NCBI GenBank assembly: GCA_003510435.1 | Contig: DOMK01000018.1 | Location: forward strand, 14,121 to 78,120 | DNA from: Candidatus Magasanikiibacteriota bacterium | Lineage (GTDB): Bacteria > Patescibacteriota > Patescibacteriia > Magasanikbacterales > UBA922 | Direction of reading: 5' to 3' | Length of the DNA: 64,000 nucleotides | Shown: piece after piece, positions 13,545 to 44,535 of the stretch | Layout of the letters: every line of letters starts with the position of its first letter | How positions within the stretch are numbered: position 1 is the first letter of the stretch | Notes under the pieces: generated by a model | The model's database searches: none | Seen by the model: the letters and a program-made list of their open reading frames with translations, nothing else | What the model was told of the DNA's origin: nothing | Translations under genes and position numbers: made by a program

Positions 13545-13576
13545 AGAAGATATAATTAATAATTAATTTTCAATTT

Positions 13577-13617: not shown

Positions 13618-13674
13618 TTTCATTTTATAAATATTTTGAAAATTGAAAATTGGTTTTTATAATTTGTTGTATTA

Positions 13675-14250: not shown

Positions 14251-14435
14251 AATTTTATATCATTAACCTCTGTATCCTTCCTACCCCTTTCGACCTCGGG
14301 GCATACAAAGTAAGCGCTGATATAATGAAAACAATATACCAGAATAGGGTGAGTTTGTCAAATCCTTTGTCTTTGAAAGATTTTTTGATAATTTAAAACC
14401 AAAAAATGTAAAATTTATTCATTATTCTTTATTCC

Positions 14436-14473
14436 TTGACGATATTCCTTACAACACCTATATATGCTATAAT
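14436..14473 (+). promoter_or_regulatory. Candidate promoter for pilB (TTGACG-17-TATATA, with an overlapping extended -10 TGcTATAAT)
   Basis: TTGACG 14436-14441; TATATA 14459-14464; TGcTATAAT 14465-14473. Confidence 0.4.
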
Positions 14474-14519
14474 ATAAATACTTTATACTTTAAAACTTTA
14501 CAAACTTCAACTCAATTCT

Positions 14520-16247
14520 ATGCTTCCAAATGAAATTCTTCGCACAATCCTAAAAGATGATTTTAATATAAAAAACGAGGATTATAAAAAACATGAAATC
14601 CAAGCCAAAAAGCTAAATAAAACATTGGAACAATATTTATTTGATGAAAATATTGTGGATGAAGTGGAACTATATACCAAAGCTTCCAATCGTTATGAAG
14701 TCCCATTTGTCACTCTCAAAGGGGTAGAGATCAAAAAAGAAATTCTAAATCTAGTTCCGCCACCTCTGGCTCAAACTCACAATGTAGTGGCTTTTGACAA
14801 AGACAAACAAGAAGTAAAATTGGCCATGCTAGATCCAATGGATATCCAAACCATTGAATTTTTGCACAGAAAAATTGGTCTTATTCCCAAAGTATTTTTT
14901 ACTACTCCCAGCGATATTAAAGAAGCTCTCCATCGCTATCATGCTGATTTGGAAAGTGATGTTTCGATCAGACAATTATCTGATGGCGAAGTCGCGAGTG
15001 AAAAAGATCTGAAAAAAGCCGCTGAGGAATTACCCATTATTAATATCGTGAATAGTATTTTGGAACACGCGGTTTATGAAGGCGCGAGTGATATTCACAT
15101 TGAACCAGCTGAAAAAGAAATTGTCGTGCGCTATCGGGTAGATGGAATTTTGAAAAATGTGATGAACCTACCAAAGACTGTCCGGAGTGGGATTGTGGCT
15201 CGTATCAAAGTGTTGTCAAATTTAAAAATTGATGAACACATGAAACCCCAAGATGGCCGATTCAAAATTCAAATTCAAGATGAAAAACTATCTTTCCGTG
15301 TTTCTATTATGCCTGTCTATGATGGAGAAAAAATTGTGATGCGTCTTTTGCACGAAGGCCAAAAACCTCTCAACCTGGATCAACTTGGATTTTTACCTGA
15401 AGCCAGAAAATTAGTAGAAGAAGCAATCAAAAAACCTCATGGTATGATCCTAGTGACTGGGCCAACAGGTTCTGGAAAAACTACCACTCTTTATTCTTTA
15501 CTCGGAATTTTGAATCAGCCTGATGTAAATATTTCTACGATTGAAGACCCGATTGAATACCATGTCAAAGGTATAAATCAAAGTCAGACAAATGCGCAAG
15601 TTGGTTTTACTTTTGCGATTGGTCTACGGGCTTTCTTACGTCAAGATCCAGATATTATTATGGTCGGAGAAATTCGTGATAATGAAACTGCCCAAATCGC
15701 TGTCCATGCGGCTATGACTGGGCACTTGGTACTCTCTACACTTCATACCAATGATGCCCCAACGACTTTACCTCGTTTGTTAGACATGGACATTCCTCCA
15801 TTCTTGATTGCCTTTACCGCCAATATTATTGTGGCCCAAAGATTGGTAAGAAAAATTTGTGAACACTGTAAAAAGGAATATTATTTGGACAAGACCGAAA
15901 TTTCTGAACTAGAAAAATCGACTGACATCAAAAAAATAAAAGAACTATTTAATAAACAAAAAATAAAATTGGCTGACAAAGAAAAAAATGTCGAAACTTT
16001 AATTTTTTATCGTGGTGAAGGTTGTCGACGGTGTAATAATACTGGCTACAAAGGCAGAATTGGTATTTATGAAGTCTTGGATATTGATAAGGATATGGCC
16101 AAAAAAATTAATGAACGCGCCACCGCTGATGTGATAAAAGATTATGCCAGACAAAAAGGTATGACCACAATTATGGAAGATGGAATTGTAAAAGCTAAAC
16201 AAGGCATTACCACGATTGAGGAAATTTTGCGAGTGAGTAAGGACTAA
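14520..16247 (+). CDS. pilB: Type IV pilus assembly ATPase PilB (GspE family)
   Basis: 575 aa. Walker A GPTGSGKTTT, Asp/His boxes, C-terminal CxxC..CxxC tetracysteine motif. Confidence 0.92.
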   Translation: MLPNEILRTILKDDFNIKNEDYKKHEIQAKKLNKTLEQYLFDENIVDEVELYTKASNRYEVPFVTLKGVEIKKEILNLVPPPLAQTHNVVAFDKDKQEVKLAMLDPMDIQTIEFLHRKIGLIPKVFFTTPSDIKEALHRYHADLESDVSIRQLSDGEVASEKDLKKAAEELPIINIVNSILEHAVYEGASDIHIEPAEKEIVVRYRVDGILKNVMNLPKTVRSGIVARIKVLSNLKIDEHMKPQDGRFKIQIQDEKLSFRVSIMPVYDGEKIVMRLLHEGQKPLNLDQLGFLPEARKLVEEAIKKPHGMILVTGPTGSGKTTTLYSLLGILNQPDVNISTIEDPIEYHVKGINQSQTNAQVGFTFAIGLRAFLRQDPDIIMVGEIRDNETAQIAVHAAMTGHLVLSTLHTNDAPTTLPRLLDMDIPPFLIAFTANIIVAQRLVRKICEHCKKEYYLDKTEISELEKSTDIKKIKELFNKQKIKLADKEKNVETLIFYRGEGCRRCNNTGYKGRIGIYEVLDIDKDMAKKINERATADVIKDYARQKGMTTIMEDGIVKAKQGITTIEEILRVSKD

Positions 16248-16323
16248 ACAAATTTATATCTATTTATCTCAATGTATAAAAAATCTTGCTAAAAAATAAA
16301 AACTTCCAAGTTATTACAAGTCT

Positions 16324-17436
16324 ATGAAAAAACCTCGTGAACTTTCGTCACTAGAAATAAAACTAAACGCCTGGGTCACTAAATATCTGACTAGAATTCC
16401 TTTTATCCAAAAGATGTTTTTTATTGACCACTTGAAAACCATGATTCACGCGGGCTTGTCTATTACCGAATCTCTAGATACTTTGAGCAAAGAAATTGAA
16501 AACAAAAAACTAAAAGGCATTATTGCCGAAATTAAGATTGGTATAGAAAAAGGCAATCAACTAAGTGAAGTGCTAGCAAAATATCCCCAAGCTTTTCCCC
16601 CAATTTATGTAAAAATGGTTGAATCGGGCGAAGTCTCTGGTAAACTAGAAGAATCTCTAACTCAAATCGTAGAACAAATGCAAAAAACTCAAGAACTAAA
16701 CTCCAGTATCCGTGGGGCTATGATTTATCCAGCAGTAATCTTAGTCGCTATGGGTGGAATTGGTATTATGATGGTGACTGTAGTCTTGCCAAAATTAATG
16801 ACCTTGTTTGAAGAATTTGATACTGAATTGCCTTTGGCTACCAGAATGTTAATGGCCATCACCAACTTCATGAGCAAACCACTAAACCTAATTATAATGG
16901 TCTTGGTTATTACTGCCATAATTACGGCCTTTGTCATGTCTCTAAAAAGAATTCCTGAATTCAAAAAATTTGTTCATAAATTAAATCTTCACCTGCCTAT
17001 CATTGGCATGGTAGTAAAAAAAATAAACTTAGCCCGTTTTTCGCTTACCTTATCTTCACTTTTAAAAAGTACCATTCCAATCGTGGACGCCACAGATATT
17101 ACGGCCGAGACTTGTGGTAATGTATTATACAAAAATGCTCTGCACGAAGCAGCCGAAAGAATAAAGACTGGCACACCTTTATCAGAAATCTTGGCTGATT
17201 ATCCCAAACTTTTTCCACCGATGGTGACAGAAATGATTATGGTTGGCGAACGTTCCGGAGAAATTGATCACTTGCTCGAAGAACTGGCAAAATTTTATAG
17301 TAGTGAAGTAGACAAAACCATGAAAAATTTCACTCAAGTAATAGAACCTATCATCATTCTTCTCTTGGGTGTAGCGGTTGCCATTATGGCGGTCGCTGTG
17401 ATCACACCCATGTATACATTGGTACAGAATTTTTAA
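16324..17436 (+). CDS. pilC: Type IV pilus inner-membrane platform protein PilC (GspF family)
   Basis: 370 aa, two T2SSF repeats, three TM segments, conserved P..V..M...GE.SG blocks. Confidence 0.88.
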   Translation: MKKPRELSSLEIKLNAWVTKYLTRIPFIQKMFFIDHLKTMIHAGLSITESLDTLSKEIENKKLKGIIAEIKIGIEKGNQLSEVLAKYPQAFPPIYVKMVESGEVSGKLEESLTQIVEQMQKTQELNSSIRGAMIYPAVILVAMGGIGIMMVTVVLPKLMTLFEEFDTELPLATRMLMAITNFMSKPLNLIIMVLVITAIITAFVMSLKRIPEFKKFVHKLNLHLPIIGMVVKKINLARFSLTLSSLLKSTIPIVDATDITAETCGNVLYKNALHEAAERIKTGTPLSEILADYPKLFPPMVTEMIMVGERSGEIDHLLEELAKFYSSEVDKTMKNFTQVIEPIIILLLGVAVAIMAVAVITPMYTLVQNF

Positions 17437-18922: not shown

Positions 18923-18954
18923 AGACTCCCCATAAAGGAGTTTTTTATTTTTTG
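18923..18954. terminator. Terminator hairpin actcc-N7-ggagt followed by a T-run (shared motif actcccca[ct]aaaggagttttt)
   Basis: agactccccataaaggagttttttattttttg. The same motif recurs at 22737-22761. Confidence 0.5.
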
Positions 18955-20396
18955 ATTCTTACAAAATTCTGGTCAGCATTCACTTCTACTACGTCACCAG
19001 TTTGAAATAATTTTGTTGCCAAACCAGTACCAACAATACAAGGCACACCAATTTCACGCGATAATATAGCCGCATGGCACATTATTCCACCTTGATCAGT
19101 CACTACTGCCCCAGCCAATCTCAGAGCAGGGACATATTCCGGGCTCGTCATAGTTGTTATCAAAACTTCGCCTTTTTTAATATTTTTAATTTCACTAGCC
19201 TCGCGAATAATCCGCACTTTACCAATATAACAACCAGCCGAAGCCGTCACACCCAAAAGTAAAGATTTTTTATTTATTACTATTTTTTTGTGTTCCATTA
19301 AAATTTTACTTGCTTCTGCACCCAAAAATATTTTTATGCTATTCTGATTAAATACAAATAAACTGTTGATACTTCTATTTTTTAATTCATCATCTTTTAC
19401 AAAAAGATTATTTAATAAAGCTTTTTCTAATTCTTTTGGCAAATAATATTGCATCAATTCGCGTTGGATATTTAATCTCTTGGCAATTTCTTCTAGTAAA
19501 CCCACAATGTAATAATGAACCAGAGTAAATTTTCCTTTTTTATAATCTTGCAAATAAGTAGCCAAACGTAAATTATTAAACAAATCTTTGTGTACTTTAT
19601 CAATTTTATATTTTTTTTCTAATTCTGTTTGCTGTTTTGGTAATTGATTAAAATATCTTTTGCTACTTAGTAGCCGACTTTCCATATCACCTTGTTTTAA
19701 AATGTGATCCAGCACGATAGAAAAATATTTTTCATTCCACAGATCCAATCCATAATCATAGGGTAACCAAGAATATTTTTGGGCATGTATTTTGATTACT
19801 TTCTCCAAATTAATATTTTTTTTGTTTTTAATTTTTAAAGCAATATTTAACAAATCATCTTCTTCCTGTTTGGCAAAAGATTTTTCTCGTGGGGCTGAAA
19901 GAATTGAATAAGTGGTTGTTAATTCTTCTGAATTATTAATTTTTTTACTTAAATATTCTTTTAAATAGCTACCCAATGACTCTTCTAAACCCAAAACTAT
20001 CGGCTCACTCCAAGGATAAGCTTGCTTATACAACTTTAAATACTTATCAAACATCTGCCAAAGTTCCTGATTGGTTTTTTTATTTAAATTAGTTTTATAA
20101 ATACCAGAAGCCAATTTGGCTAACGGCAACATTTTTTGATTATATTTTTTAATAATTTTATTTAAAAAAATTTTATCTTTTTTAACCAAGACCAAAGCTT
20201 GTTTGGCGACTTTTTTTACTCCAGCTTCCGAAGCATACCAGTACATTACCCCATTCAAATATTCCACCAGAGTAATTCCAAAAGATAGACCCAAAGAATC
20301 TTGCATATTTTTACAATAGGATTGGGCAATAATATATGCATTAGGTATTAAATGAATTCTCTCTTTTTGTTGCATGAAAATATAATCTTTATTCAT
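18945..20396 (-). CDS. PEP-utilizing enzyme mobile (swivel) domain protein
   Basis: C-terminus GGIMCHAAILSREIGVPCIVGTG....GDVVEVNADQNFVRI is the phospho-His swivel domain (PF00391-like). N-terminal ~380 aa unassigned. Confidence 0.7.
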   Translation of the reverse strand: MNKDYIFMQQKERIHLIPNAYIIAQSYCKNMQDSLGLSFGITLVEYLNGVMYWYASEAGVKKVAKQALVLVKKDKIFLNKIIKKYNQKMLPLAKLASGIYKTNLNKKTNQELWQMFDKYLKLYKQAYPWSEPIVLGLEESLGSYLKEYLSKKINNSEELTTTYSILSAPREKSFAKQEEDDLLNIALKIKNKKNINLEKVIKIHAQKYSWLPYDYGLDLWNEKYFSIVLDHILKQGDMESRLLSSKRYFNQLPKQQTELEKKYKIDKVHKDLFNNLRLATYLQDYKKGKFTLVHYYIVGLLEEIAKRLNIQRELMQYYLPKELEKALLNNLFVKDDELKNRSINSLFVFNQNSIKIFLGAEASKILMEHKKIVINKKSLLLGVTASAGCYIGKVRIIREASEIKNIKKGEVLITTMTSPEYVPALRLAGAVVTDQGGIMCHAAILSREIGVPCIVGTGLATKLFQTGDVVEVNADQNFVRIKK

Positions 20397-20401
20397 AAAA
20401 T

Positions 20402-21889
20402 TTAATTATTATTTTGTGGAGTAAGAATCCTTACTGTGCCATGATTAGCTCGCACAGCCACAACATCACCAGTCTTAATTTGGGTAGTGGCGGTGTGAGT
20501 ATCTATTATACATGGTTTACCAGCCAAACGAGCATTAATAGCGGCATGACAAAGCATTCCCCCAGCATTAGTAATTATGGCCCCGGCTTTTTTTATAATT
20601 TCTAACATTTTGTCATCAGTCATCTCGGTAATCAAAATTTCTCCAGCCTGAAACTTTTTTATATCCTCGGCTTTTTCTATCACCCGAGCAACACCTTGGG
20701 CATAGCCCTGTGCCCCCACCTTGCCAGCAATGGCTCGACCCAATTCACTTTGCTGTAAAATTTCTTGCAATTCTTCATAAACTTTTTTAACTTCCACCCC
20801 TTCAATAATTTTGTAATCCTTACCCAATACCGAAAGCAAAAAACCCTGACTAAAACGATTTTTTAGAATTTGTTTTTTTATTAAGCCACGCAACAAATTG
20901 TCCAATTCTTCAAAAGTCAAAAAAAATAAATATTTCTCATCAATGCCTGAAATTTTTGCCAGCAGTTTAAATAGCTTAATCCACAACTCTTGAACTTGCA
21001 AATTAACTCCCTGCCGATATTCGCGCCATTGTCCCAACTCTTTAAAAAACTCCAAAGGATTGGTATCCAATTTATATTTTTTCAAAATTATCATGGTCAA
21101 CTGGCGGTGTTTTTTGGCACGCGCAATCTCCTCTTTGGTATTTTTATTTTTGTCTAAAACTTTTTCACTGGTTAAAAGTTCAGCAATTTCCATTTGCGAA
21201 AAATTATAAATCTTGCCAATTCGTGCTACTTCTTTGTTGTCATAGCCCAAATCAAAACTATCAATAAATATTGCTGTAGACCAAAACTTTTCCAAAATGC
21301 TTTGCCATTGTTTCAAAAATTCTAATAATTCATTTGTATCCCATTCTGCTGGTAAACCAGTCGCATATTCCTGGCAAAACGCTTCTACTTTTTTTCCATA
21401 ATCAAAAAAACTTTCTTTTAGTTCAAAATGTCGCCGGCTTAATTCTCCATATTCTTTATAAACACTTTCTGCCATCTCTGCAAATGCCAAGGTAGTGTGC
21501 CAAAAAACCTCACAAGTGCCATTTTTAAAATACACATCACAAGTCCCCAGACCCTCATCAAAAAATTTGGGGTTAGGATGAACAATACCAGTAATTCTGG
21601 GCCAAAAAATGATCGGGCTTAAAGCCAATATTTGCCGATACATTTTGGGAGCACTCTCTTCGCTTTGTTTTGGTTCAAACTCCACAATATCATTAATTTT
21701 CAGACCATATCTTTCGCACAGCTTGTCCAGGGTGGAAAACCAGACTCCTTCAGCTTTGCCATGAAAAAGTGCAGTAATAGTATTGCGATTTATGCCAGTT
21801 TCTTGGCTAATTTCAGACATATTCTTGCCAAGTTTCTTAGCAATGGTATGGATTTTTAGTTTAATCATACTTTTTTTCAGTGGAATCAT
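20402..21889 (-). CDS. XRE-type HTH fused to a PEP-utilizing enzyme mobile domain
   Basis: N-terminal HTH (IAKKLGKNMSEISQETGINRNTITALFHG). C-terminus AGGMLCHAAINARLAGKPCIIDT...GDVVAVRANHGTVRIL is a swivel domain with the catalytic His context. Confidence 0.7.
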   Translation of the reverse strand: MIPLKKSMIKLKIHTIAKKLGKNMSEISQETGINRNTITALFHGKAEGVWFSTLDKLCERYGLKINDIVEFEPKQSEESAPKMYRQILALSPIIFWPRITGIVHPNPKFFDEGLGTCDVYFKNGTCEVFWHTTLAFAEMAESVYKEYGELSRRHFELKESFFDYGKKVEAFCQEYATGLPAEWDTNELLEFLKQWQSILEKFWSTAIFIDSFDLGYDNKEVARIGKIYNFSQMEIAELLTSEKVLDKNKNTKEEIARAKKHRQLTMIILKKYKLDTNPLEFFKELGQWREYRQGVNLQVQELWIKLFKLLAKISGIDEKYLFFLTFEELDNLLRGLIKKQILKNRFSQGFLLSVLGKDYKIIEGVEVKKVYEELQEILQQSELGRAIAGKVGAQGYAQGVARVIEKAEDIKKFQAGEILITEMTDDKMLEIIKKAGAIITNAGGMLCHAAINARLAGKPCIIDTHTATTQIKTGDVVAVRANHGTVRILTPQNNN

Positions 21890-34235: not shown

Positions 34236-34520
34236 ATGTCAACCTGGAAAACCCCTCAACTTAAAAGTTTGTCCCAAGCAATAGCCCTACTAGACAATGA
34301 AAAAGATGTTACAAATTTTTTACGTGATCTCTGCACTTTGGAAGAATTAACCGAGATATCACATCGTTGGGAAGCAGTCAAAATGATAAGTAATAAAAAA
34401 ACTTATCGGGACATTGCCACCAAAACTGGTATGAGTACAGCCACTATCACCCGCATTGCTCGCTGGTTAAAACATGGTGAGGGCGGTTATAAAAAAACTT
34501 TAGAAAAACTGGCCAAATAA
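34236..34520 (+). CDS. TrpR-like YerC/YecD family protein
   Basis: KTYRDIATKTGMSTATITRIARWLKHGEGGYKKTLEKL matches the YerC family signature. Confidence 0.75.
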   Translation: MSTWKTPQLKSLSQAIALLDNEKDVTNFLRDLCTLEELTEISHRWEAVKMISNKKTYRDIATKTGMSTATITRIARWLKHGEGGYKKTLEKLAK

Positions 34521-34801
34521 GCCAGTTTTTTAGTATAAATTAATTTAAAGATTAGTGCCGATTCGTGTTAAGATTAGTGTTTATCCACAGACCTACTTGA
34601 CAAATCATTTTATTTGTATTAATATGTTAATACAAAGATATGAATAAAAAAACCCAACAAAATTCAAACCATCACAAAATAGACCTCAGATAAAATTTTG
34701 AAGAAGTTTTATTTTGAGGTCACCTAGAATCGCCAAACAAGCGGTTCTTTTATTTAACCTGAGTGAGTCCGAATGGACGATTTAAAGGGTTTACTCTCCG
34801 C

Positions 34802-34820
34802 CTCCCGATTAAATCGGGAT
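34802..34820. repeat. Palindromic repeat ctcccgattaaatcgggat upstream of hisG
   Basis: Same family as 12765-12785 and 13577-13596. Confidence 0.5.
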
Positions 34821-34859
34821 TGCGGGCAGACTTATTCCTCACTCCTTATTCCTTATACT

Positions 34860-35480
34860 ATGACTAATCTAAAAATAGCAATTCAAAAAAAAGGCCACCT
34901 TAGAGACGAGAGTATATTATTTCTTAATTCTTTAGGTATAAGTTGTCAACAAAAAAACAACCAACTGATTACCAAATGCCCTAATACCAATATAGAAATT
35001 ATATTTCTTCGTGATGATGATATTCCAAATTATGTAAATAAAAATCTAATTGATTTTGGTATTATTGGCGAAGATGTGATTAAAGAAAATAATAATCAGA
35101 CTAAACTAGTAAAAAAACTTGGCTTTAGCAAATGTCAACTAGTCATGGCTAGTCCTAAAGATAGTGACATAAACAGTATAAATGATCTACAAGGTAAAAG
35201 AATTGCCACTTCTTATCCCAATATTCTAAAAAAATTTCTTGATTTAAACAAAATTCAGAGCAGTATAGTACAAGTCTCTGGTTCAGTTGAAGTGGCACCA
35301 TGCTTAAACCTGGCTGACGCAGTCTGTGATCTTACTCAAACTGGTAATACTCTGAGACAATGTGGTTTAGAACAATTTACTACTGTCTTAAAATCAGAAG
35401 CAGTACTAATTGAAAACAAATTAATAAAACCAGAAAAACAGAAACTTTTAGATCTTATAAAACAATATGCAAATAGTTAA
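34860..35480 (+). CDS. hisG: ATP phosphoribosyltransferase (short form)
   Basis: MTNLKIAIQKKGHLRDESILFL...; about 206 aa. Start at 34860 rather than the listed ORF start at 34773. Confidence 0.85.
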   Translation: MTNLKIAIQKKGHLRDESILFLNSLGISCQQKNNQLITKCPNTNIEIIFLRDDDIPNYVNKNLIDFGIIGEDVIKENNNQTKLVKKLGFSKCQLVMASPKDSDINSINDLQGKRIATSYPNILKKFLDLNKIQSSIVQVSGSVEVAPCLNLADAVCDLTQTGNTLRQCGLEQFTTVLKSEAVLIENKLIKPEKQKLLDLIKQYANS

Positions 35481-36765
35481 ATTAGCACAATTTAAAACCA
35501 CAAAACGCTACAAAATTATAATGAAACGTAGTTGTCAAAATTATGATGCACTTTTTCCTATGGTAAAAAAAATTATGAATGATATTGAAAAAAATGGCGA
35601 TACCGCTATAAAAAAATACACCAAAAAATTTGATGGGATAAATATTGATAACCCAAAAGTTAGCACAAATGAAATTAAAACTGCTTACAAAAAAGTTAGT
35701 AAACAATTTCTAACAGCACTAAATCAAGCCATATCAAACATCACTGCCGTACACCAAACACAATTACCAAGTTCTGCCGAAAAAATAGTTAAACCTACAC
35801 CTGGTATAAAAATCTGGAAAAAATGGCAATCAATAGAACGAGTTGGTCTTTATGTCCCCGGTGGAAAAGCCCTTTATCCTTCTTCGGTTCTAATGAATGG
35901 TATACCAGCTAAAATTGCCGGCTGTAAAAATATTTCTATTATTACTCCACCCCGAAAAGATGGCACGATTGCACCGGAAATATTAGTAACAGCTAACATG
36001 ATTGGTATAAAAAATATTTATAAAATTGGCGGGATTCAGGCAATTGGTGCTCTCACTTATGGAACCGAAACCATACCAAAAGTAGATAAAATAGTGGGTC
36101 CTGGCAATGCTTATGTAACTGTAGCCAAAATGATTGGTCTCATGAGTGGTAAAATTGCTATTGACTCTCCAGCTGGACCATCGGAAAATTTAATTATTGC
36201 TGATAATATTGCTAATCCAAAATTTGTCACCGCTGATCTAATGTGTGATATAGAGCATGGTGGTGATTCGGCTGCCATTCTTGCTACCACTTCAAATAAA
36301 TTAGCCGAGGAAGTGAGGCGACTAATTAAAAAAGAAATCAATAAATTTAGTACTAAAAATTATATCAAACAATCAATAAAAAAATACAGTCAAATTATAA
36401 TTGCAAATTCTATCAAAGATTGTATTACTTTTGCCAATGACTACGCCCCAGAGCACATTCAGATTATGACAACCAATTCTAAAGCAATAGCAAAACAAAT
36501 CACTAATGCTGGATCAATCTTTATTGGCAGTTATACTTGTAAATCAGCTGGCGACTATGCTACTGGTGCAAACCATGTACTACCAACAGGTGGCTCAGCC
36601 AAAATGTTTTCTGGATTATCAGTCTTGGACTTTGTCCGTCTGGTAGAATATCAAACTTGTACTAAACAAGGCTTAAAAAATATTAAAAAAACCATTGAAA
36701 CTTTTGCTGAGGTAGAAAATCTACCAGCTCACAAATATTCTTGTTCAATTCGATTCAATCAATAA
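35467..36765 (+). CDS. hisD: Histidinol dehydrogenase
   Basis: 432 aa; GDTAIKKYTKKFD and conserved Zn/NAD motifs (HGGDS, DYA.G.NHVLPT). Confidence 0.9.
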   Translation: MQIVKLAQFKTTKRYKIIMKRSCQNYDALFPMVKKIMNDIEKNGDTAIKKYTKKFDGINIDNPKVSTNEIKTAYKKVSKQFLTALNQAISNITAVHQTQLPSSAEKIVKPTPGIKIWKKWQSIERVGLYVPGGKALYPSSVLMNGIPAKIAGCKNISIITPPRKDGTIAPEILVTANMIGIKNIYKIGGIQAIGALTYGTETIPKVDKIVGPGNAYVTVAKMIGLMSGKIAIDSPAGPSENLIIADNIANPKFVTADLMCDIEHGGDSAAILATTSNKLAEEVRRLIKKEINKFSTKNYIKQSIKKYSQIIIANSIKDCITFANDYAPEHIQIMTTNSKAIAKQITNAGSIFIGSYTCKSAGDYATGANHVLPTGGSAKMFSGLSVLDFVRLVEYQTCTKQGLKNIKKTIETFAEVENLPAHKYSCSIRFNQ

Positions 36766-36790
36766 TTACTTGTAGTGAGTTTATCGAACT

Positions 36791-37855
36791 ATGAAAAACT
36801 TAGTTAACAACAACATACTAAAGATGCAACCCTACAACCCGCCCATCGAAGGCCGGGCGGGTTTGGGTTATCTTTTATTAGATTTTAATGAAAGAACTGA
36901 ACCTTATGACAAATATATTAACCAATATCTAAAAAAATGCTTAAACAATAATACTCTAAATATTTACCCAGCTTATAAAAATATTTATGAAAAAATTGCC
37001 AAATATGCTGGTGTTAAAAAAGACAATATTTTAATCACAAATGGTTCTGGCCAAGCCATTGAAATAATTTTTAAAACTTTTACCCAAAAAAATGATCAAG
37101 TTATTATCCCCTCACCCAGTTTTGCTAGATTTTATCAAAATGCAAACATAAGTAATAATATTATCATCACACCACAATACAATAAAAGTGATCTTTCTTT
37201 TCCATTAAATAAAGTACTTAAAAATATAACTTCTAAAACAAAAATGATTATTATTTGTAATCCCAATAATCCCACTGGCACCAGTCTATCACTAATAGAA
37301 ATTGAGCAAATATTACAAAAAACTAAAAATTCTCTTGTCTATATTGATGAAGCATATTTTGAATTTTCAAATATTACGGCGGTGCCATTATTGAAAAAAT
37401 ATCCAAACTTAGTAATTAGTCGAACATTTTCCAAAGCCTTTGGCTTAGCTTCATTACGGATTGGTTATATTATCGCCAACGAAAAACTAATAAAAGAAAT
37501 GCAAAAAGTTCGTGGGCCTTATGATATTAATACTCTGGGTATCAAAGCAGTTGAATATGTATTAAAAAATATTTCTGGATTAAAAAATTATGTAGATGAA
37601 GTGATGACAAAATCCAAACCAATTTTAGAAAAATATTTAACACAAAAAAATATTAAATATTATAATAGCAATGCTAATTTTGTTTTGATCAAACCCACAA
37701 ATCCTAAAAAAGTTTTTAATCATCTCAAAACTAATAACATTCTAACCCGTCCTCGTATTGACTCAGTTATTGAAGGCACAATTCGGATAACTATTGGTAC
37801 AATCAAACAAACTAAAAAACTAATAGCTATACTAGATAAATTAAATATATGTTAA
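36791..37855 (+). CDS. hisC: Histidinol-phosphate aminotransferase
   Basis: Class II aminotransferase; PLP lysine context SRTFSKAFGLASLRIGY. Confidence 0.85.
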   Translation: MKNLVNNNILKMQPYNPPIEGRAGLGYLLLDFNERTEPYDKYINQYLKKCLNNNTLNIYPAYKNIYEKIAKYAGVKKDNILITNGSGQAIEIIFKTFTQKNDQVIIPSPSFARFYQNANISNNIIITPQYNKSDLSFPLNKVLKNITSKTKMIIICNPNNPTGTSLSLIEIEQILQKTKNSLVYIDEAYFEFSNITAVPLLKKYPNLVISRTFSKAFGLASLRIGYIIANEKLIKEMQKVRGPYDINTLGIKAVEYVLKNISGLKNYVDEVMTKSKPILEKYLTQKNIKYYNSNANFVLIKPTNPKKVFNHLKTNNILTRPRIDSVIEGTIRITIGTIKQTKKLIAILDKLNIC

Positions 37856-38895
37856 ACAAATACGCTTTTATAGACAGGGATGGTGTACTAATCTTTGAAC
37901 CTGAGGATACCAAACAAATTGATTCTCTAAATAAACTAAAGATATTAGACGGCGTTATTCCTGTTTTAAAACAATTAATAGTTGATGATTATAAATTAAT
38001 TATGGTTTCTAACCAAGATGGTTTGGGTACAACCAGTTTTCCCCGAACTAATTTTGATATTGTCCAAGATAAATTATTAGATAATTTGAAAAAAAAAGGG
38101 ATAAAATTTTATAGAATATTTATCTGTCCACATCTGCCAAGTAATAATTGTTCTTGTCGAAAACCAGAGACTGGTTTAATTAAAGAATTTTTATTAGTAA
38201 AACCAATGGATAAAGCCAGATCTTTTATGATTGGTGATAGGGATTCTGATAAACAATTTGCCAAAAATCTTGGTATAAAATTTTATCAAACCAATACTAA
38301 TTCAAGTTTTCCTCGTTTAGCAGAACTAGAACGTAATACAAATGAAACCAAAATTTTTACTCAACTAAATCTAGATGGAATCGGTAATTATAATATTGAT
38401 ACTGGTATAAAATTTTTTGATCACATGCTAGAACAAATTGCTAAAAATTCTTTAATTGATATAGACATAAAATGCACTGGTGATTTGTCTGTAGATGAAC
38501 ACCACACCGTAGAAGACGTAGGTTTAGCTTTGGGAGCTACAATAAACAAAGCTCTAACCAATAAAAAAGGTATAAACCGTTATGGGTTTTTGTTACCCAT
38601 GGATGAAGCCTTGGCAGAAGTGGCCATTGATTTAAGTGGACGACCATTTCTAGTCTGGAATGCAAAATTCAAACGCGAAAAAATTGGGGACATACCAACT
38701 GAATTATTTGAAGATTTTTTTCGTGCTCTTAGCAACAATCTACAAGCTAACATTCACATCAACATCCGTTATGGTCGAAATGAACACCACATGGCTGAAG
38801 CTATTTTCAAGGCTATTGGCAGAACCTTGCGCCAAGCAATTGAAAATGACCCTAGACAAAAAAACTTAATCACTAGTACCAAAGGAATCTTATGA
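37849..38895 (+). CDS. hisB: Bifunctional histidinol-phosphatase / imidazoleglycerol-phosphate dehydratase
   Basis: N-terminal HAD motif FIDRDGVL..MVSNQDGLG..GDRDSD; C-terminal IGPD motifs (DEHHTVEDVG, GRNEHHMAEAIFKA). Confidence 0.9.
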   Translation: MLNKYAFIDRDGVLIFEPEDTKQIDSLNKLKILDGVIPVLKQLIVDDYKLIMVSNQDGLGTTSFPRTNFDIVQDKLLDNLKKKGIKFYRIFICPHLPSNNCSCRKPETGLIKEFLLVKPMDKARSFMIGDRDSDKQFAKNLGIKFYQTNTNSSFPRLAELERNTNETKIFTQLNLDGIGNYNIDTGIKFFDHMLEQIAKNSLIDIDIKCTGDLSVDEHHTVEDVGLALGATINKALTNKKGINRYGFLLPMDEALAEVAIDLSGRPFLVWNAKFKREKIGDIPTELFEDFFRALSNNLQANIHINIRYGRNEHHMAEAIFKAIGRTLRQAIENDPRQKNLITSTKGIL

Positions 38896-39479
38896 TCGCT
38901 ATTATAAATTATCAAGCTGGAAATATTACCTCAGTGGCCAATGCTCTTAATAAATTAGGCGTAGATTATGTTATCACCGCTGACAAAGAAATAATTAGAA
39001 AAGCTGACAAAATAATTTTTCCAGGCCAAGGCAGAGCGGGCCAGGCTATTAAGGAACTTAAAAAAGCGGGACTGATTGATCTGATTAAAAACACTTCAGT
39101 CCCCTTTCTTGGTATTTGTTTGGGATTACAAATCTTAGCCACGTCTTCTGATGAAGACAATACCAGATGCTTAGGTATAATTCCTGGCACAGTAAAAAAA
39201 TTCTCTTCAGAATTGAAAATACCACAAATTGGTTGGAATAAAGTAAACCTAACCAAACGATCGTTCCTAACGCAAGATATACCAGACAGTACTTATTTTT
39301 ATTTTGTCCACTCTTATTATCTCATAACTGAAAACAAATATATTATTGGTAAAACCAACTATGATATTGAATATCCAACCATTATAAATAAAAATAATTT
39401 TTATGCCACTCAATTTCACCCAGAAAAATCTGGTGACGTTGGTTTAAAATTATTAAATAATTTCTGCAAGTTATGTTAG
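38892..39479 (+). CDS. hisH: Imidazole glycerol phosphate synthase, glutaminase subunit
   Basis: Class I glutamine amidotransferase; GICLGLQ catalytic Cys, QFHPEKS. Confidence 0.85.
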   Translation: MIAIINYQAGNITSVANALNKLGVDYVITADKEIIRKADKIIFPGQGRAGQAIKELKKAGLIDLIKNTSVPFLGICLGLQILATSSDEDNTRCLGIIPGTVKKFSSELKIPQIGWNKVNLTKRSFLTQDIPDSTYFYFVHSYYLITENKYIIGKTNYDIEYPTIINKNNFYATQFHPEKSGDVGLKLLNNFCKLC

Positions 39480-40948
39480 TTATTCCCGCAATTGATATTC
39501 TAAATGGTAAATGTGTCCGTTTGACCCAGGGTAATTTTAGTTTGGCTAAAAAATATTCTAATAATCCCGTACAAATGGCTAAAAGGTTTACCCAAGCTGG
39601 TGCCACTCGTATACACATTGTAGACCTAGACGGCGCTAAATCTGGTAAACCAATAAACTTTACTCTTATTAAAAAAACTAGACAATCAACTCCGGCTATT
39701 CTTGAAATTGGTGGCGGAATAAGAAATTTAAAAACTGCCAAAACTTACTTAGATCTTGGTATTGATAAAATTATTATTGGCACCAGTGTAATTAAAAATT
39801 TAAAATTAATAAAAAATCTTATTGATAAATACGGCAGTCAAAGAATAATTATCGGCTTGGACTTAAATAAAGATAAAATTGTCATTAACGGCTGGAAAAA
39901 AACTAGTCAACAAAATTATTTATCACTGGCAAAAAAACTAAAGAAAATTGGCACTAGAGAAATAATTTGCACTGATATTTCCCGTGACGGAATGCTTTCC
40001 AATCCAAATTTAGAACCAATTAAAAAATTACAGGCTCTAGGCTTCTGGGTAATAATCTCTGGTGGTATAGCTAATATAAATACAATAAAAAAACTACAAA
40101 CCCAAAAATTCTATGGTGCAATTTTAGGTAAAGCCTTGTATGAAAATAAAATCAACTTTAAACAAGCAATTAAATTAACCAAAACAACCAATAATTTAAC
40201 CAAACGAATTATTCCTTGTTTAGATGTTAAAAATAATCAAGTGGTAAAAGGTATAAAATTCAAAAAACTTACTTTTGCTGGTGATCCAGCTGAACTTGGC
40301 AAAAAATATGCCGAGGCTGGCGCGGATGAATTGGTTTTTTTAGACATCACGGCCACCTTAGAAAAAAGAAAAACCCTATGCTCTATGGTACAAAAAATCG
40401 CTAACAATATTTTTATTCCTTTTACCGTGGGTGGTGGAATTAAATCAGTCAAAGATATTAGCGCAGTATTAAAAGCCGGAGCTGACAAAATTGCTATAAA
40501 TACGGCTGGAGTTTTAAATCCCAAATTGATTAAACAAGCGAGTAAAAAATTTGGTTCACAATGCATTGTCGTAGCGATTGATACTAAAAAAGTTAATAAT
40601 GATTATTTTGTCTATATTAATAGTGGTAAAACAAAAACCAAACTAAAAGTTCTGGATTGGGTAAGGCAAGTAGAAAAACTGGGGGCAGGAGAAATATTAT
40701 TAACTGCCATTGACCGCGATGGTACCAAATCTGGCTTTGATAACAATCTACTCCGACAAATTTGCTCAACTGTTAATATTCCAATAATTGCTTCTGGTGG
40801 CGCTGGTAAATTGGCTGACTTTAAAAATGCCATAATAAAAGGTGGAGCTGACGCTGTCTTAGCTGCCAGTATTTTTCACTACAATAAAAAAACCATAAAT
40901 ACTCTAAAAAAATATTTAAAGAAAAATAATATTAATGTCAGAATATGA
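39473..40948 (+). CDS. hisAF: HisA::HisF fusion (ProFAR isomerase fused to imidazole glycerol phosphate synthase cyclase subunit)
   Basis: Residues 1-240: HisA ([15 protein letters not shown]...[10 protein letters not shown]). Residues 245-491: HisF ([33 protein letters not shown]...[15 protein letters not shown]). One 491-aa ORF. Confidence 0.9.
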
Positions 40949-41550
40949 AACTAATTCCTACAATTATCCAAGATGAAAGTACTGACGTGGTGCTGATGTT
41001 AGGTTATATGAATGATGAGTCACTCAAAAAAACTAAAAAGACAAAAAAAGTCTGGTTTTATAGTCGCTCAAAAAAACGTCTCTGGCTTAAAGGTGAAACC
41101 AGTAAAAATTATTTATTTGTAAAAAGCATAGACTTTGATTGTGACAAAGATACCATTCTTATTAAAGTAAAACCCGCTGGACCAACCTGCCACACTGGTA
41201 ATTATTCTTGTTTTAAAAAAAAGCCTGAGATAAATCCCTTGGTTGAATTGTTTTCCACAATAGAAGATAGAAAAAAGAATCTACCTAAAAATTCTTACAC
41301 CACCAGTTTATTTAAAGGTGGTATAAATAAAATTATTGGTAAAGTAATGGAAGAAACTACTGAGGTAATTAATGCCTCTATCCGAGAAACAAAAAAACGT
41401 TTAATAGAAGAAACGGTCGATTTACTTTACCACCTTTTTGTTTTATTAAGTAAAAAAAATATTAAATTGGAAGATGTTTTTAAGGAGATTGAAAAACGCA
41501 GAAACAAAAAATCCCGGGCTTCATCTGCGACTACGCCCGGCAAGCCCTAA
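40945..41550 (+). CDS. hisI: Bifunctional phosphoribosyl-AMP cyclohydrolase / phosphoribosyl-ATP pyrophosphatase
   Basis: HisI motif CHTGNYSCF followed by a HisE-like C-terminus. The last ~13 codons are supplied by repeat element R1. Confidence 0.85.
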
Positions 41551-41607
41551 CATCTTTTCTAAAAAAAGACTGACCTGCCCAGCGTAGCTTTAGCGAAGCC
41601 TGGGTTT
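41507..41607 (+). repeat. ~100-nt structured repeat element R1 (second copy R2 at 53926-54035)
   Basis: Conserved blocks gactacgcccggcaagc and tgcccagcgtagctttagcgaRgcYgggtt around a variable loop; outer stem cccgggcttc/gaagcctggg. Overlaps the hisI 3' end. Confidence 0.6.
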
Positions 41608-41705
41608 CTTGCCTTGTGTTTGCGCGCAAGCTTGGGTGCTGGAGTTGGTCCGCGGCTCCAGCACCGCGGGTGACATTCCTATGCCACCATACCCCCTTCT
41701 TGTTG

Positions 41706-42329
41706 TTAGATTGCCAGACACTCTGCGACGATATAGCGATTCATCACCGCCATACCATCGACCATCTCACCCTCCTCAATTCTGTGTGTCTCTACAATCT
41801 TAAAACTACCCCAAAGAACATAATCACGCAAAGAATTCTCTGAAAAGTAGAAATCTTCACGCTTACCCCCGTTACCATTCCCATTTAAGATTTTCACGGG
41901 AAATGGCTCATCACCTTCGGCCACTCTAACAGCCAAAAGCAATGGAGCTCCAAGACACATAACTCTACGCAATTCTCGTACAGATGCCATAATCTCTTGT
42001 ACACTATGCATGTTATGCAATACTCTCCAAGAGAGTACTGCACTAAAATAATCATCTGGAAAAGGAAGCTGAGAAAATCTTTGTACCTCAACAAAATTTT
42101 CCAAACCAATAGTAGCTTGACGAGCCCATGGTCCGTCTACTGCGACAACTTCTCTACCGAGAGATCGCAGAACTGATAGATTTCGCCCTCTCCATGCTCC
42201 CCAGTCCAGAACTGGGTTGCGTTCTGAACTCGTAAGGTGGTGGAGCAGGAATTCTTGACCGGAACCAGCCACGAACCCACTAGGTTCATAGCCGATTTCA
42301 TACTTACTCCCTCCGTGCCACTTATCCAT
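41706..42329 (-). CDS. Class I SAM-dependent methyltransferase-like protein (GC-rich island)
   Basis: Degenerate motif I VLDWGAWRGRN, acidic post-I VAVD, motif II-like region. About 48% GC. Strong Shine-Dalgarno AAGGGAGGAAAAAG. Confidence 0.5.
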   Translation of the reverse strand: MDKWHGGSKYEIGYEPSGFVAGSGQEFLLHHLTSSERNPVLDWGAWRGRNLSVLRSLGREVVAVDGPWARQATIGLENFVEVQRFSQLPFPDDYFSAVLSWRVLHNMHSVQEIMASVRELRRVMCLGAPLLLAVRVAEGDEPFPVKILNGNGNGGKREDFYFSENSLRDYVLWGSFKIVETHRIEEGEMVDGMAVMNRYIVAECLAI

Positions 42330-42414
42330 CTTTTTCCTCCCTTTGTTGGGTTGTAGACTCTACCACAATATCGACTTTACAAATCAATATTATGGTAAAG
42401 TCTATTACATAATT

Positions 42415-44199
42415 CTAACTATATTTTTTTCGCAAAATTTTTCCTGCGCCTACTTCATTTTTTAATTTTAAGTAAGCTTCATCCAACGGCACATTAGCTT
42501 GCGAACCAGGAGCAAAACCACAATCCGGATTTAAAATAATTCTGTTCGGTGCCACATACTGCAAAGCTTTTTCTACTCGTGTCACAATTTCTTCTGGTGT
42601 ATCAATGTGTTCAAATCTGCACTCCACACAACCAAGACCTACTTTAAATTTTTCTGGTAAATTTTTTAAGGCGCTAAAATCACCGGCAACTGGGATGCTA
42701 TATTCCAACACAAATTGATCTACATCAATGGCGCTAATGGCAGAAATAATAGCCTCATAGCCACCTTTACCAATCCAACCTTGTCTACCTTTATTGCGCC
42801 GACATAAATGTAATGCTGTTTCTATTCCGTCAATTCCTTTCACAACTTCATTAACTACTTGACAGGCATAATTTAACTCTTTTTTCGGGTCAGAAAATTG
42901 AGTTCGTAATTCTTTATCAACAAATAGACAAATATGAGGATCATCAATTTGCACAATATTAGCACCAGCCTCCCGTAATAAAATAATTTCATTGCGAAGT
43001 ATAGGAATAAGGGCTTCCACAAAAGCCTCACGAGTTGGATAGGCTTTTATAGATTTTTTTTCATCCCACAATCGTTGACCAAGAAGATAAGGCGACGGCA
43101 GGCACACTTTAATTTTTTTAATAGTATGTAATTTCAAAAATTTTGCTTCACGTGCAAAAAACCCAGGTTTATCATAAACCAATTTTTCTTCCACCGTATG
43201 CCATGAACGGCCATCACTTGAATTAAAATAATGTTTAAAACCAGAAGCTATATTGGCTATTACTCCCACATAAGATTTGCGTCGCCATTCTCCATCAGAA
43301 ATTACATCCAAACCAGCCTGCTCTTGCAGTGCTATGGCATAAGCCACTGCCTTATCCAAAATAGGAGAAAAAGGATCACCCTCATTTAGAATAACATCTT
43401 GAACAAATTGTGGTCGCGGCAAACTACCTACAACACTTGCTGGAAATAGCTGTGAGGCAGGTTTCCAAAATTTTTGAGCATAAGCATAATCTTCCAGAGT
43501 ATCAATTTCAATATAGTCACCATGAGTAGTAACAAAATTAATTTTTACACCTTGCTGAACCAAATAATTTAAATAATGTAAAAGATAAGCACGATTTAGC
43601 GGAATGTTTTTTTCAAACTGAAAATTTTTTGGAAGGTTACAAAAATATTCTTTAAATATTTTAGCACCGGCTCGAGAAAATTTAGCCAAGCCAATAAATT
43701 CTCCTGTTGCCAAATCATCTGGAATTGTGCGGCTAAGAGTAGTAATTAGTTCGCCATCCGCTGTTACTTTTTCTGCATCAATGGAGGGGTGAAGACTACG
43801 ATGTACATACCGAGCACGCCAATCAGTATCTACTGCTATGGTAATATCCGCCGGGCTAGCCAATAGTTTTTTAACAATCTCTGGTTTATACAGAATATCC
43901 GAATATGAGCAGATAAAACCATCGCCCATATCATTTATCGCGTAAAAGAGCGATTTTAAAATATTATTATTTTCCCAATTAGTATTATGTCGAAAAGTAA
44001 AATAAGGATATTGTTTTCTTACAACGTCAATTAAATAACCCCCAATAAAAACAATATCCCGTAGTTCTTTTGCTTGATGCGCTTCCAAAATCCAATCTAA
44101 TATCCTTTTATTGTGAACACGAGTAAAAGTTTTTGGTTCAGTATTAGTTAGATGCTCCAACCGCTTACCACGGCCAGCACCTATAATAATTGTTTTCAT
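42415..44199 (-). CDS. Fusion protein: N-terminal sugar-phosphate nucleotidyltransferase plus C-terminal MetE-like (cobalamin-independent methionine synthase family) Zn-dependent domain
   Basis: N-terminus MKTIIIGAGRGKRLEHLT (G-rich NTP-transferase loop). C-terminus VGSLPRP, VQIDDPHI, LHLCRRN, LEYSIP, NPDCGF align with the MetE C-terminal IGSFPQT, IQIDE, HMCY, ENS, NPDCGL Zn-site motifs. Confidence 0.75.
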   Translation of the reverse strand: MKTIIIGAGRGKRLEHLTNTEPKTFTRVHNKRILDWILEAHQAKELRDIVFIGGYLIDVVRKQYPYFTFRHNTNWENNNILKSLFYAINDMGDGFICSYSDILYKPEIVKKLLASPADITIAVDTDWRARYVHRSLHPSIDAEKVTADGELITTLSRTIPDDLATGEFIGLAKFSRAGAKIFKEYFCNLPKNFQFEKNIPLNRAYLLHYLNYLVQQGVKINFVTTHGDYIEIDTLEDYAYAQKFWKPASQLFPASVVGSLPRPQFVQDVILNEGDPFSPILDKAVAYAIALQEQAGLDVISDGEWRRKSYVGVIANIASGFKHYFNSSDGRSWHTVEEKLVYDKPGFFAREAKFLKLHTIKKIKVCLPSPYLLGQRLWDEKKSIKAYPTREAFVEALIPILRNEIILLREAGANIVQIDDPHICLFVDKELRTQFSDPKKELNYACQVVNEVVKGIDGIETALHLCRRNKGRQGWIGKGGYEAIISAISAIDVDQFVLEYSIPVAGDFSALKNLPEKFKVGLGCVECRFEHIDTPEEIVTRVEKALQYVAPNRIILNPDCGFAPGSQANVPLDEAYLKLKNEVGAGKILRKKYS

Positions 44200-44216
44200 A
44201 GTATAATATTAATAAA

Positions 44217-44311
44217 TAAAAAACCTTCGCTCTGTTAAGCGAAGGTGGATAAAATTAAGAATAAACTTAATCAGGCCTTCGCTTAAAAGACATCATCATC
44301 GCCATCATCAT
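44217..44311 (-). promoter_or_regulatory. Candidate leader-peptide transcription attenuator (antiterminator/terminator alternative)
   Basis: Segment A AAGCGAAGG (44284-44276, inside the leader ORF) and segment C AGCGAAGG (44231-44224) are both perfectly complementary to segment B CCTTCGCTT (44245-44237). B:C is an 8-bp stem with a 6-nt loop followed by 6-7 U, ending about 20 nt before the downstream ATG. Confidence 0.5.
44267..44311 (-). CDS. Candidate leader peptide MMMAMMMSFKRRPD (6 Met in the first 7 codons)
   Basis: ATG ATG ATG GCG ATG ATG ATG TCT TTT AAG CGA AGG CCT GAT TAA on the minus strand. Confidence 0.35.
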   Translation of the reverse strand: MMMAMMMSFKRRPD

Positions 44312-44535
44312 ATTTAGTTTGCAATAAAATTCCATAAAAAAACTTCTAACCATAGGTAGAAGTAGTATATAAAACATCTTCCCCTTATGGGTTGGAATTA
44401 CCACCTTGTCTTAAAGATAGGTTGGTAGAGAGTCATTGGGCCAATTCCCTCGTCTCTTCTTGATATAAATTAATTGTCTGTATTTAGATTATCACCACAT
44501 CATTAAATCGTCAAACAACGACTGTGGATAACTAA

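Follow-up and report, generated by a model that had tools for sequence, protein, structure and literature searches.

A hisR-type gene followed by seven genes of histidine (His) biosynthesis makes up a series of eight open reading frames (ORFs) at 34236-41550 on the forward strand of the window, the 64-kb stretch of contig DOMK01000018.1 (assembly GCA_003510435.1) in whose coordinates all window positions are given. The his genes occupy 34860-41550 in the order hisG, hisD, hisC, hisNB, hisH, hisA::hisF and hisIE, and the sixth of them encodes HisA and HisF as one fused protein, the main subject of this report. Translations of ORFs were scored with Pfam and NCBIfam models, and the curated cut-offs of these models (given below after the slash) were exceeded by every product of the locus. 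The ten enzymatic functions of the pathway are therefore complete in seven genes, at the coordinates and with the assignments that a preliminary description of this DNA had proposed.

34236-34520, forward strand: hisR, 94 aa, YerC/YecD-type protein of the TrpR family (PF01371, 88.4 bits; TIGR02531, 75.6/42.2)
34860-35480, forward strand: hisG, 206 aa, ATP phosphoribosyltransferase, catalytic core only (TIGR00070, 199.6/75.75)
35467-36765, forward strand: hisD, histidinol dehydrogenase (510.9/243.8)
36791-37855, forward strand: hisC, histidinol-phosphate aminotransferase (TIGR01141, 280.4/276.55)
37849-38895, forward strand: hisNB, bifunctional histidinol-phosphatase and imidazole glycerol phosphate (IGP) dehydratase, with a HAD-type N-terminal domain followed by the IGP dehydratase domain (NF003937, 456.4/443)
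38892-39479, forward strand: hisH, glutaminase subunit of IGP synthase (TIGR01855, 217.8/105.4)
39473-40948, forward strand: hisA::hisF, 491 aa, single unbroken frame
39473-40186, forward strand: HisA domain of the fusion, residues 1-238 (TIGR00007 over residues 3-231, 389.7/228.95)
40187-40195, forward strand: junction, three-residue linker (residues 239-241), the only place where the predicted local distance difference test score (pLDDT) is <50
40196-40948, forward strand: HisF domain of the fusion, residues 242-491 and stop codon (TIGR00735 over residues 242-490, 437.1/294.55)
40945-41550, forward strand: hisIE, bifunctional phosphoribosyl-AMP cyclohydrolase and phosphoribosyl-ATP pyrophosphatase (NF002747, 252.1/187)

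Neighbouring genes overlap at five of the six junctions between the his genes (14, 7, 4, 7 and 4 nt). One of the 7-nt overlaps joins the fusion gene to hisH, which lies directly upstream, specifies the glutaminase partner of HisF and contains the active-site motifs GICLG and HPE in its translation. Gene order, hisG-D-C-[NB]-H-A-F-[IE], is of the enterobacterial type, including the fusions hisNB and hisIE. For hisG, a start at 34773 that would give a 235-aa protein was rejected, since M30 (34860) is used by relatives, by the JGI gene call and by the family model; the upstream ATG is also disfavoured by its location inside a structured leader.

Some homologous loci retrieved for comparison (designated by L-numbers) differ in gene content. 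In L085 (7328-8824) and L174 (6766-8337), the HAD-type histidinol-phosphatase is joined to hisC in a protein of 498-523 aa, and a separate hisB encodes IGP dehydratase alone, an arrangement alternative to hisNB of the window. In the close relative L090 (4568-13800), which has a 75% identical HisAF, five genes for the synthesis of amino acids border on the his operon, coding for asd, a bifunctional aspartokinase/homoserine dehydrogenase, a Cys/Met pyridoxal-phosphate enzyme, B12-dependent metH and MTHFR. This set exceeds what Patescibacteria are usually credited with.

The HisA-HisF fusion, its distribution and ancestry

Enzyme evolution by duplication of a (beta/alpha)8 barrel has its textbook case in HisA and HisF, which catalyse consecutive steps connected by a labile intermediate. 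In the window both barrels are read from one frame, and the identical fused ORF is found in three assemblies of the source groundwater metagenome (ENA/MEGAHIT, 97 kb; JGI, 113.7 kb; Logan, 14.7 kb). AlphaFold2 predicts two complete and confident (beta/alpha)8 barrels in the 491-aa protein (mean pLDDT 90.3). When 24 fusions are aligned, the linker falls in a variable stretch of ~10 residues (columns ~230-241), which separates the last helix of HisA from KRIIPCLDV, the N-terminal motif of HisF.

Residues expected at the two active sites are preserved in both halves. Residues D7, D129 and D176 of Salmonella enterica HisA align to D8, D130 and D172 of the fusion; all 24 fusions have Asp at positions 8 and 172, and position 130, which is Asp here, is Asp or Glu in the others. 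The HisF half is collinear with Thermotoga maritima HisF at an offset of +240. Little or no variation is seen in the same set at R245, D251, K259, E286, K339, Q363, D370 and E407; of these, D251, D370, R245, E286 and E407 do not vary at all, and K339 is nearly invariant. In T. maritima HisF we take D11 and D130 to be catalytic and R5, E46, K99 and E167 to form the ammonia gate, and these positions map to conserved residues in the HisF half. [quoted passage not shown] A PriA-type bifunctional HisA/TrpF was rejected as an assignment for the HisA half (TIGR01919, 204 bits against a cut-off of 306).

The best 120 database matches of the protein are all fused, nearly all of them 480-503 aa long and 48-81% identical to it, and they originate from many other samples; two are A-F-IE triple fusions. 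The number of fused homologues, at least 120 clusters at 90% identity, is a lower bound. Relatives fetched together with their flanks retain the hisH-hisAF-hisIE context. In an exhaustive HMMER pass over 1.84 billion representatives (clusters at 50% identity, E <=1e-30), ~20 full-length A-to-F fusions, plus a few fragments that cross the junction, were found among the best 150 of 3,646 matches. Among species-representative genomes, hisA and hisF are separate at 79 of the 80 best loci, and only that of a Ca. Peribacteria metagenome-assembled genome (MAG), L004, is fused; this set, collected in a GTDB scan with generic HisF motifs, estimates rarity among the matches listed and is no taxonomic census. 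The fusion had been described preliminarily as rare, which holds for its taxonomic breadth and for the literature, but in one clade, that of the 120 or more clusters, it is commonplace.

A neighbour-joining tree was constructed from concatenated halves of 137 fused proteins and 63 unfused HisA+HisF pairs (480 columns). Here, 121 of the fused proteins group in a single clade that includes no unfused pair. Phylogeny had been named in the preliminary description as a way to check the fusion, and it places the window protein inside this purely fused clade. The pattern suggests one main origin of the fusion. The remaining 16 fused representatives are divergent and scattered among unfused sequences of other phyla, and because the nearest neighbour is unfused for seven of them, these probably represent independent events. 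Where carriers of the fusion, or of its type of HisG, bear labels, these include Magasanikbacteria, Falkowbacteria, Peregrinibacteria/Peribacteria and "Patescibacteria group"; a few labels, "Actinobacteria" on a 3-kb contig and "Proteobacteria bacterium", are dubious. The fusion is a hallmark of a large uncultured clade, the few labelled members of which are mostly Patescibacteria.

Reviews of fusions in the histidine pathway name hisIE, hisNB, hisHF and hisIED (PMC1963479 among these), and hisA is not listed in them as a partner in fusions between genes. A HisA-HisF fusion is not described in the histidine-pathway literature searched, though the word "HisAF" does occur in it, and "HisA/F-HisIE" fusions in four archaeal MAGs were mentioned in 2024 (PMC11237513).

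Larger fusions were observed in metagenomes as well, and they follow the order of genes in the operon (P0123, P0134, P0137, P0036, P0091 and P0157). HisH-HisA-HisF proteins are 707-784 aa long, including one of 710 aa in an operon context (L172, 11993-14125). A HisH-A-F-IE fusion has 933 aa, and A-F-IE fusions have 687-773 aa.

HisG and the control region

In HisG, PF01634 is the only domain detected. The protein aligns without gaps to long-form enzymes (HisG_L) and ends where their regulatory domain of ~79 residues begins. Its best PDB matches are of the long form, with 146-148 bits for Campylobacter jejuni HisG (4yb5, and 5ub9 as its engineered core) and 134 bits for the Escherichia coli enzyme, whereas HisZ-dependent short forms (HisG_S) of Lactococcus lactis, T. 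maritima, Psychrobacter arcticus and Bacillus subtilis score 70-91 bits. Compared with named genome loci, HisG is 38-45% identical to the 285-aa HisG of Bacteroidota and 26-32% identical to the 206-219-aa HisG_S of Firmicutes/Negativicutes. In all four Firmicutes loci examined, a hisZ gene of 394-407 aa is located directly upstream of hisG_S. A metagenome scan with HisG revealed few close relatives and supplied loci L094 and L096, used below to compare leaders, and the series of short and long HisG proteins. The closest homologues are 200-215 aa long, carry PF01634 only and are labelled Magasanik-, Falkow- or Peregrinibacteria or Patescibacteria; the next ones, with 48-55% identity, are 283-310 aa long and bear the regulatory domain PF08029.

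The PF08029 domain was not found elsewhere in the 64-kb window (best E-value 0.1). A HisZ/HisRS homologue was not found in the window (tblastn, E-value 0.13 at best) or in the L085, L089, L173 and L174 operons. Without PF08029, HisG is therefore not HisG_L as defined, and because its sequence lies outside the HisG_S clade and no hisZ is adjacent, it is not a canonical HisG_S. Judged by its sequence, it is a natural core-only derivative of the long-form enzyme. The designation "short form" in the preliminary description is consequently misleading: it fits the length of 206 aa and the lack of a regulatory domain, but the sequence is of the long-form type and not of the HisZ-dependent kind, and the question raised there about hisZ has to be put differently.

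Elements found within and downstream of hisR, up to the intrinsic terminator ahead of hisG, are as follows.

34504-34530, forward strand: hairpin with T-run at the end of hisR, inverted repeat I3 AAAAACTGGC/GCCAGTTTTT, a perfect 10-bp stem across the stop codon
34581-34589, forward strand: TTATCCACA box, 7 nt upstream of the his -35 hexamer, identical to the DnaA-box consensus
34597-34625, forward strand: his promoter, TTGACA-17-TAATAT, 10/12 matches to the consensus
34615-34634, no strand assigned: predicted HisR operator, perfect palindrome TGTATTAATATGTTAATACA over the -10 hexamer (extended palindrome 34613-34636)
34640-34693, forward strand: 17-codon leader ORF, MNKKTQQNSNHHKIDLR, in which codons 11-12 are His-His
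34682-34721, forward strand: leader hairpin, which takes in the last leader codons and the stop codon
34726-34756, forward strand: intrinsic terminator, 8-bp stem and TTTTATTT

The best PDB matches of the hisR product are 3frw and 3g1c (E = 1.2e-18 for 3g1c), the latter being a protein of Eubacterium eligens identified as HisR (PMC9413887). HisR is a histidine-dependent repressor acting on 20-bp palindromes (PMC9413887, Ashniev et al. 2022). Histidine-dependent DNA binding was shown for HisR of Ruminococcus gnavus alone, and Patescibacteria are not among the phyla catalogued for this regulator (PMC9413887). The YerC/TrpR-like gene noticed ahead of the operon in the preliminary description is indeed present at 34236-34520, and its assignment can be refined to the histidine repressor HisR with an identifiable operator.

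The predicted operator TGTATTAATATGTTAATACA is the only sequence in 64 kb that corresponds to TGTAnTA-N6-TAnTACA without mismatches. The motif recurs in his promoters of L089, L091, L094, L096 and L174. The Peregrinibacteria-type loci L084, L085 and L173 have it in front of hisR, and it is thus conserved in at least eight related loci. Some relatives have tandem operator sites offset by 8 bp. Furthermore, the -35 hexamer is invariant in five aligned his loci. A full HisR site was not found upstream of hisR in the window, where a half-site only is present, and no autoregulation is therefore claimed here.

A leader ORF of 16-17 codons, with a conserved frame, His-His at codons 10-12 and the other residues variable, is shared by six independent loci. 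The leader hairpin is kept between loci despite their differing sequences, with z-scores of -5.2 to -6.5 in the three loci folded. RNAalifold gave a weak consensus on five leaders, because MAFFT misaligns the variable hairpin. The terminator is conserved as AATCGC...GCGATTTTTTATTT, and in L089, L096 and L174 it ends ~20 nt before the hisG ATG, so that read-through is required there.

Three further observations concern this region. The TTATCCACA box occurs in six copies in the window, compared with 0.8 expected (10360, 26056(-), 32853(-), 34581, 44523(-) and 63719). It is positioned 7-8 nt upstream of the -35 hexamer at both the his promoter and the promoter of a SAM (S-adenosylmethionine) riboswitch, and its presence at the his promoter is conserved in L089, L091, L096 and L174. 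In L094, in which HisG is 68% identical, a tRNA-His(GTG) gene (2905-2977) is inserted between the leader terminator and hisG. A GC-rich nested hairpin at 34793-34830, between the terminator and hisG, is specific to the window and absent from L089 and L091.

Host lineage and genomic surroundings

The contig of the operon also carries rpoB, rpoC, rpsB, tsf and rpsF. Named best matches of its RpoB are only Ca. Magasanikbacteria, Magasanikiibacteriota, Patescibacteria, Parcubacteria or Nomurabacteria, and the longest contigs of relatives measure 0.87-1.23 Mb. These matches place the organism in Ca. Magasanikbacteria and agree with the host proposed preliminarily, a member of Patescibacteria with a reduced genome, and the NCBI label on the fusion protein is Ca. 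Magasanikbacteria. Locus L089 (HisAF 71% and RpoB 86% identical) shares with the window SpoIID, Polysacc_synt, EamA, Wzy_C and hisR on the upstream flank and NUDIX, UvrA and DsbA on the downstream one. In L174, the shared genes are Polysacc_synt, Wzy_C and hisR on the one flank and UvrA on the opposite flank. With a GC content of 0.30-0.33, the operon does not stand out from its surroundings. Flanks common to both loci, together with the unremarkable GC content, therefore indicate that the operon is resident in this subclade. A full his operon had been considered notable for Patescibacteria; the operon is complete, but his operons with short HisG are annotated in several groups of Patescibacteria, and this genome is not unique in that respect.

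Downstream of hisIE, the SAM riboswitch mentioned above (44371-44469; RF00162, 64.5 bits) stands ahead of a gene on the reverse strand (42415-44199) coding for a 594-aa protein in which a nucleotidyltransferase domain is fused to a MetE-like catalytic domain (Meth_synt_2). This gene is followed by a small methyltransferase gene (41706-42329, reverse strand). The block 41560-44530 is missing in the syntenic L089, where hisIE abuts NUDIX-UvrA, and has a higher GC content (0.378); it therefore looks like an insertion. On the reverse strand at 18945-21889, there are two tandem paralogues of ~490 aa, in which a phosphoenolpyruvate-utilizer mobile domain at the C-terminus is the sole recognisable domain, and one of them also has an N-terminal helix-turn-helix.

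Interpretation, alternatives and comparison with known systems

We interpret the locus, with a probability of about 0.8, as a functional and chromosomally native histidine operon of Candidatus Magasanikbacteria, with a HisA-HisF fusion, a core-only HisG and presumed control by HisR. Several observations weigh against this interpretation or parts of it. The predicted template modelling score of the AlphaFold2 model is 0.64, and the relative orientation of the two barrels is therefore undefined. The tree was built without bootstrap, its unfused pairs were drawn among the matches listed, and only a handful of fusion carriers have taxon labels. In addition, the syntenic "Patescibacteria group" locus L174 has unfused hisA and hisF (9515-11043, 17 nt apart), so that not all of the lineage carries the fusion. 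HisF of this locus nests among fused HisF halves (65-68% identity), but its HisA does not exceed 31% identity with any HisA compared. This suggests a fission with replacement, and the history of the fusion includes at least one of these two events. The search for hisZ covered 64 kb of a genome of ~1 Mb, and hisZ could lie elsewhere; furthermore, in L084 and L172 a HisRS-like gene is located between hisR and hisG. Concerning the leader, it has only two His codons, no T-box or His-leader Rfam match was obtained over the whole window at the gathering threshold or at 34480-34900 with E <=10, where noise alone was returned, and no antiterminator was found in folds with the ribosome halted at either the His codons or the stop codon. 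That the leader provides regulated termination, resembling a histidine attenuator, is plausible, at slightly less than an even chance.

The HisRS-like genes just mentioned are listed here.

L084, 4120-5412, and L172, 7728-9029: HisRS-like genes, 430-433 aa, with anticodon-binding domain

These neighbours keep a HisZ-like partner possible, and they are relevant for the alternative in which the window has a canonical short-form system, with a HisG_S that needs HisZ, encoded elsewhere, for activation and histidine feedback. A short hisG is expected to come with hisZ (PMC8305728), and HisG_S alone is a poor catalyst (PMC10795190). L084 even contains, downstream of the operon (12267-16887), hutH and two further HisRS paralogues. 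Against this stand the failure to detect HisZ/HisRS in the window and in the operons of four related loci, the clustering of HisG with long forms and not with HisZ-partnered HisG_S, and the features of the genes in L084 and L172, which are of HisRS size and have kept the anticodon-binding domain. We regard the canonical short-form system as a real but rather doubtful alternative. An origin of the operon by recent horizontal acquisition, or on a foreign contig, in which case it would not be a heritage of a reduced-genome organism, is unlikely. It is favoured by resemblance to a compact operon that spreads horizontally (PMC1963479), visible in gene order, in the hisNB and hisIE fusions, in HisG and HisA affinities (best PDB matches from C. 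jejuni, E. coli and Salmonella) and in the proteobacterial-type HisR motif, as well as by an apparently patchy presence in Magasanikbacteria, where more than 100 RpoB clusters at least 77% identical contrast with four other HisAF clusters at least 70% identical. However, the operon shares its contig with rpoBC, rpsB, tsf and rpsF, both its flanks are syntenic in L089 and L174, and its GC content equals that of the surroundings; any transfer is therefore ancient relative to this subclade. The compact his operon is described as having originated in gamma-proteobacteria and spread horizontally to Campylobacter and Bacteroidota (PMC1963479). In a reasonable scenario, an ancestor of Patescibacteria may have acquired it in ancient times, after which HisG would have lost its regulatory domain and hisA and hisF would have fused.

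Two alternatives address the fusion itself. The second barrel could be a WbuZ/AglZ-type paralogue for glycan amidation, with the fusion serving another pathway, and indeed the cut-offs of TIGR03572 WbuZ (382.2/299.7) and NF038364 AglZ/HisF2 (339.5/310) are also passed. Nevertheless, the highest score of this barrel is that with the HisF model (437.1 bits), the gene is placed between hisH and hisIE in a complete his operon without other HisF, and the positions aligned to the T. maritima catalytic and ammonia-gate residues are conserved, which makes an amidation role very improbable. An even smaller probability is assigned to an artefact, in which an error of sequencing or assembly, such as the loss of a stop codon or a frameshift, made a single ORF in silico out of separate hisA and hisF genes. 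Adjacent hisA and hisF with a short spacer or overlap are the rule, as in the 79 unfused genome loci, and a gene caller shortened one fused ORF, in L173. Yet the same ORF was obtained from three assemblers, and the diverged fused homologues in other samples and studies, at least 120 in number, have a conserved junction and form a coherent clade. The artefact is already effectively refuted, and the fusion noted preliminarily is upheld as neither misassembled nor frameshifted.

If the locus is the native operon with the fusion, its working can be envisaged as follows. The hisA stop codon and the hisF start would have been lost ancestrally in the lineage leading to this organism, so that the ProFAR isomerase and IGP synthase cyclase barrels would be made as one polypeptide. 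HisH would remain separate and dock on the HisF barrel of the fusion. The fusion would ensure a 1:1 stoichiometry of two consecutive enzymes, and labile PRFAR would be released beside the site that consumes it, which may permit channelling. As HisG appears to have lost the C-terminal histidine-sensing domain, end-product control would be mainly transcriptional: HisR with histidine would bind the 20-bp palindrome over the his -10 hexamer and repress the operon, and the conserved leader with its 17-codon ORF, two His codons, hairpin and terminator probably adds control by termination. A more far-reaching proposal, in which both regulation and architecture of the pathway would have been remodelled, combines a naturally truncated, HisZ-independent and feedback-free HisG core, all control by HisR and an antiterminator-free leader, and direct hand-over of PRFAR in HisA-HisF, in a Patescibacteria-centred lineage whose relatives extend the trend to HisH-A-F and HisH-A-F-IE megaenzymes. 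As a whole, this proposal is tentative, and we lean against it. Should it prove true, the fused protein would serve as a natural "Rosetta stone" for a physical interaction of HisA with HisF, which so far is only a hypothesis.

The pathway itself is known, the host is uncommon, and two structural variants of the locus are undescribed, the HisA-HisF fusion and the long-form-derived core-only HisG; a predicted HisR operator with a leader cassette is a further feature. A diversified natural HisA-HisF family, together with H-A-F and H-A-F-IE proteins, offers a test object for protein evolution and metabolic channelling, and supports the notion that the hisBHAF "core" enzymes act as a complex. A long-form-derived HisG without the regulatory domain challenges the annotation rule by which HisG_L occurs alone and HisG_S with HisZ. 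Some Magasanikbacteria evidently keep a costly ten-step amino-acid pathway with dedicated and conserved transcriptional control, and relatives also hold methionine/threonine pathway genes, which qualifies the picture of uniform auxotrophy in Patescibacteria.

Compared with known systems, the core of the window HisG resembles HisG_L in its intact catalytic domains I-II and in belonging to the long-form group, but HisG_L is a hexamer with a regulatory domain, and PF08029 was not found in the window protein. With HisG_S it shares the length (206 aa, in the ~214 aa class) and the lack of a regulatory domain, whereas its sequence belongs to another clade and it has no hisZ next to it. The engineered C. 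jejuni HisG core (5ub9), which in the work of Mittelstadt et al. from 2018 was reportedly active and insensitive to histidine, has in this protein a counterpart that occurs in nature.

His-leader attenuators (Rfam RF00514; Bacillus cereus-group) likewise have a short ORF with consecutive His codons, hairpins and a terminator before hisG, and the window leader differs from them in having two His codons, no Rfam match and no antiterminator pairing found. With the HisR regulon (PMC9413887) the locus shares a TIGR02531 protein beside the his operon, a 20-bp palindrome in the promoter and the proteobacterial-type motif TGTAnTA...TAnTACA; the difference is that HisR is combined here with a leader-ORF and terminator cassette.

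The enterobacterial operon hisGDC[NB]HAF[IE] of E. coli and Salmonella is similar in gene order, in hisNB and hisIE fusions and in overlapping genes (PMC1963479, PMC8305728), and HisG and HisA of the window are closest to that group in PDB and homologue searches. Unlike in that operon, hisA and hisF are fused, HisG has no C-terminal regulatory domain, the host belongs to Patescibacteria, and HisR with a two-His-codon leader would take the place of the classical seven-His attenuator. Finally, HIS7/HisHF, hisIE, hisNB and HIS4 share with the fusion the covalent joining of functionally linked His enzymes from neighbouring genes. The similarity is extended in HIS7/HisHF to the attachment of the partner at the N-terminus of the HisF barrel, but the partner there is the glutaminase HisH, whereas here it is HisA, the preceding enzyme of the pathway and a paralogue of HisF.

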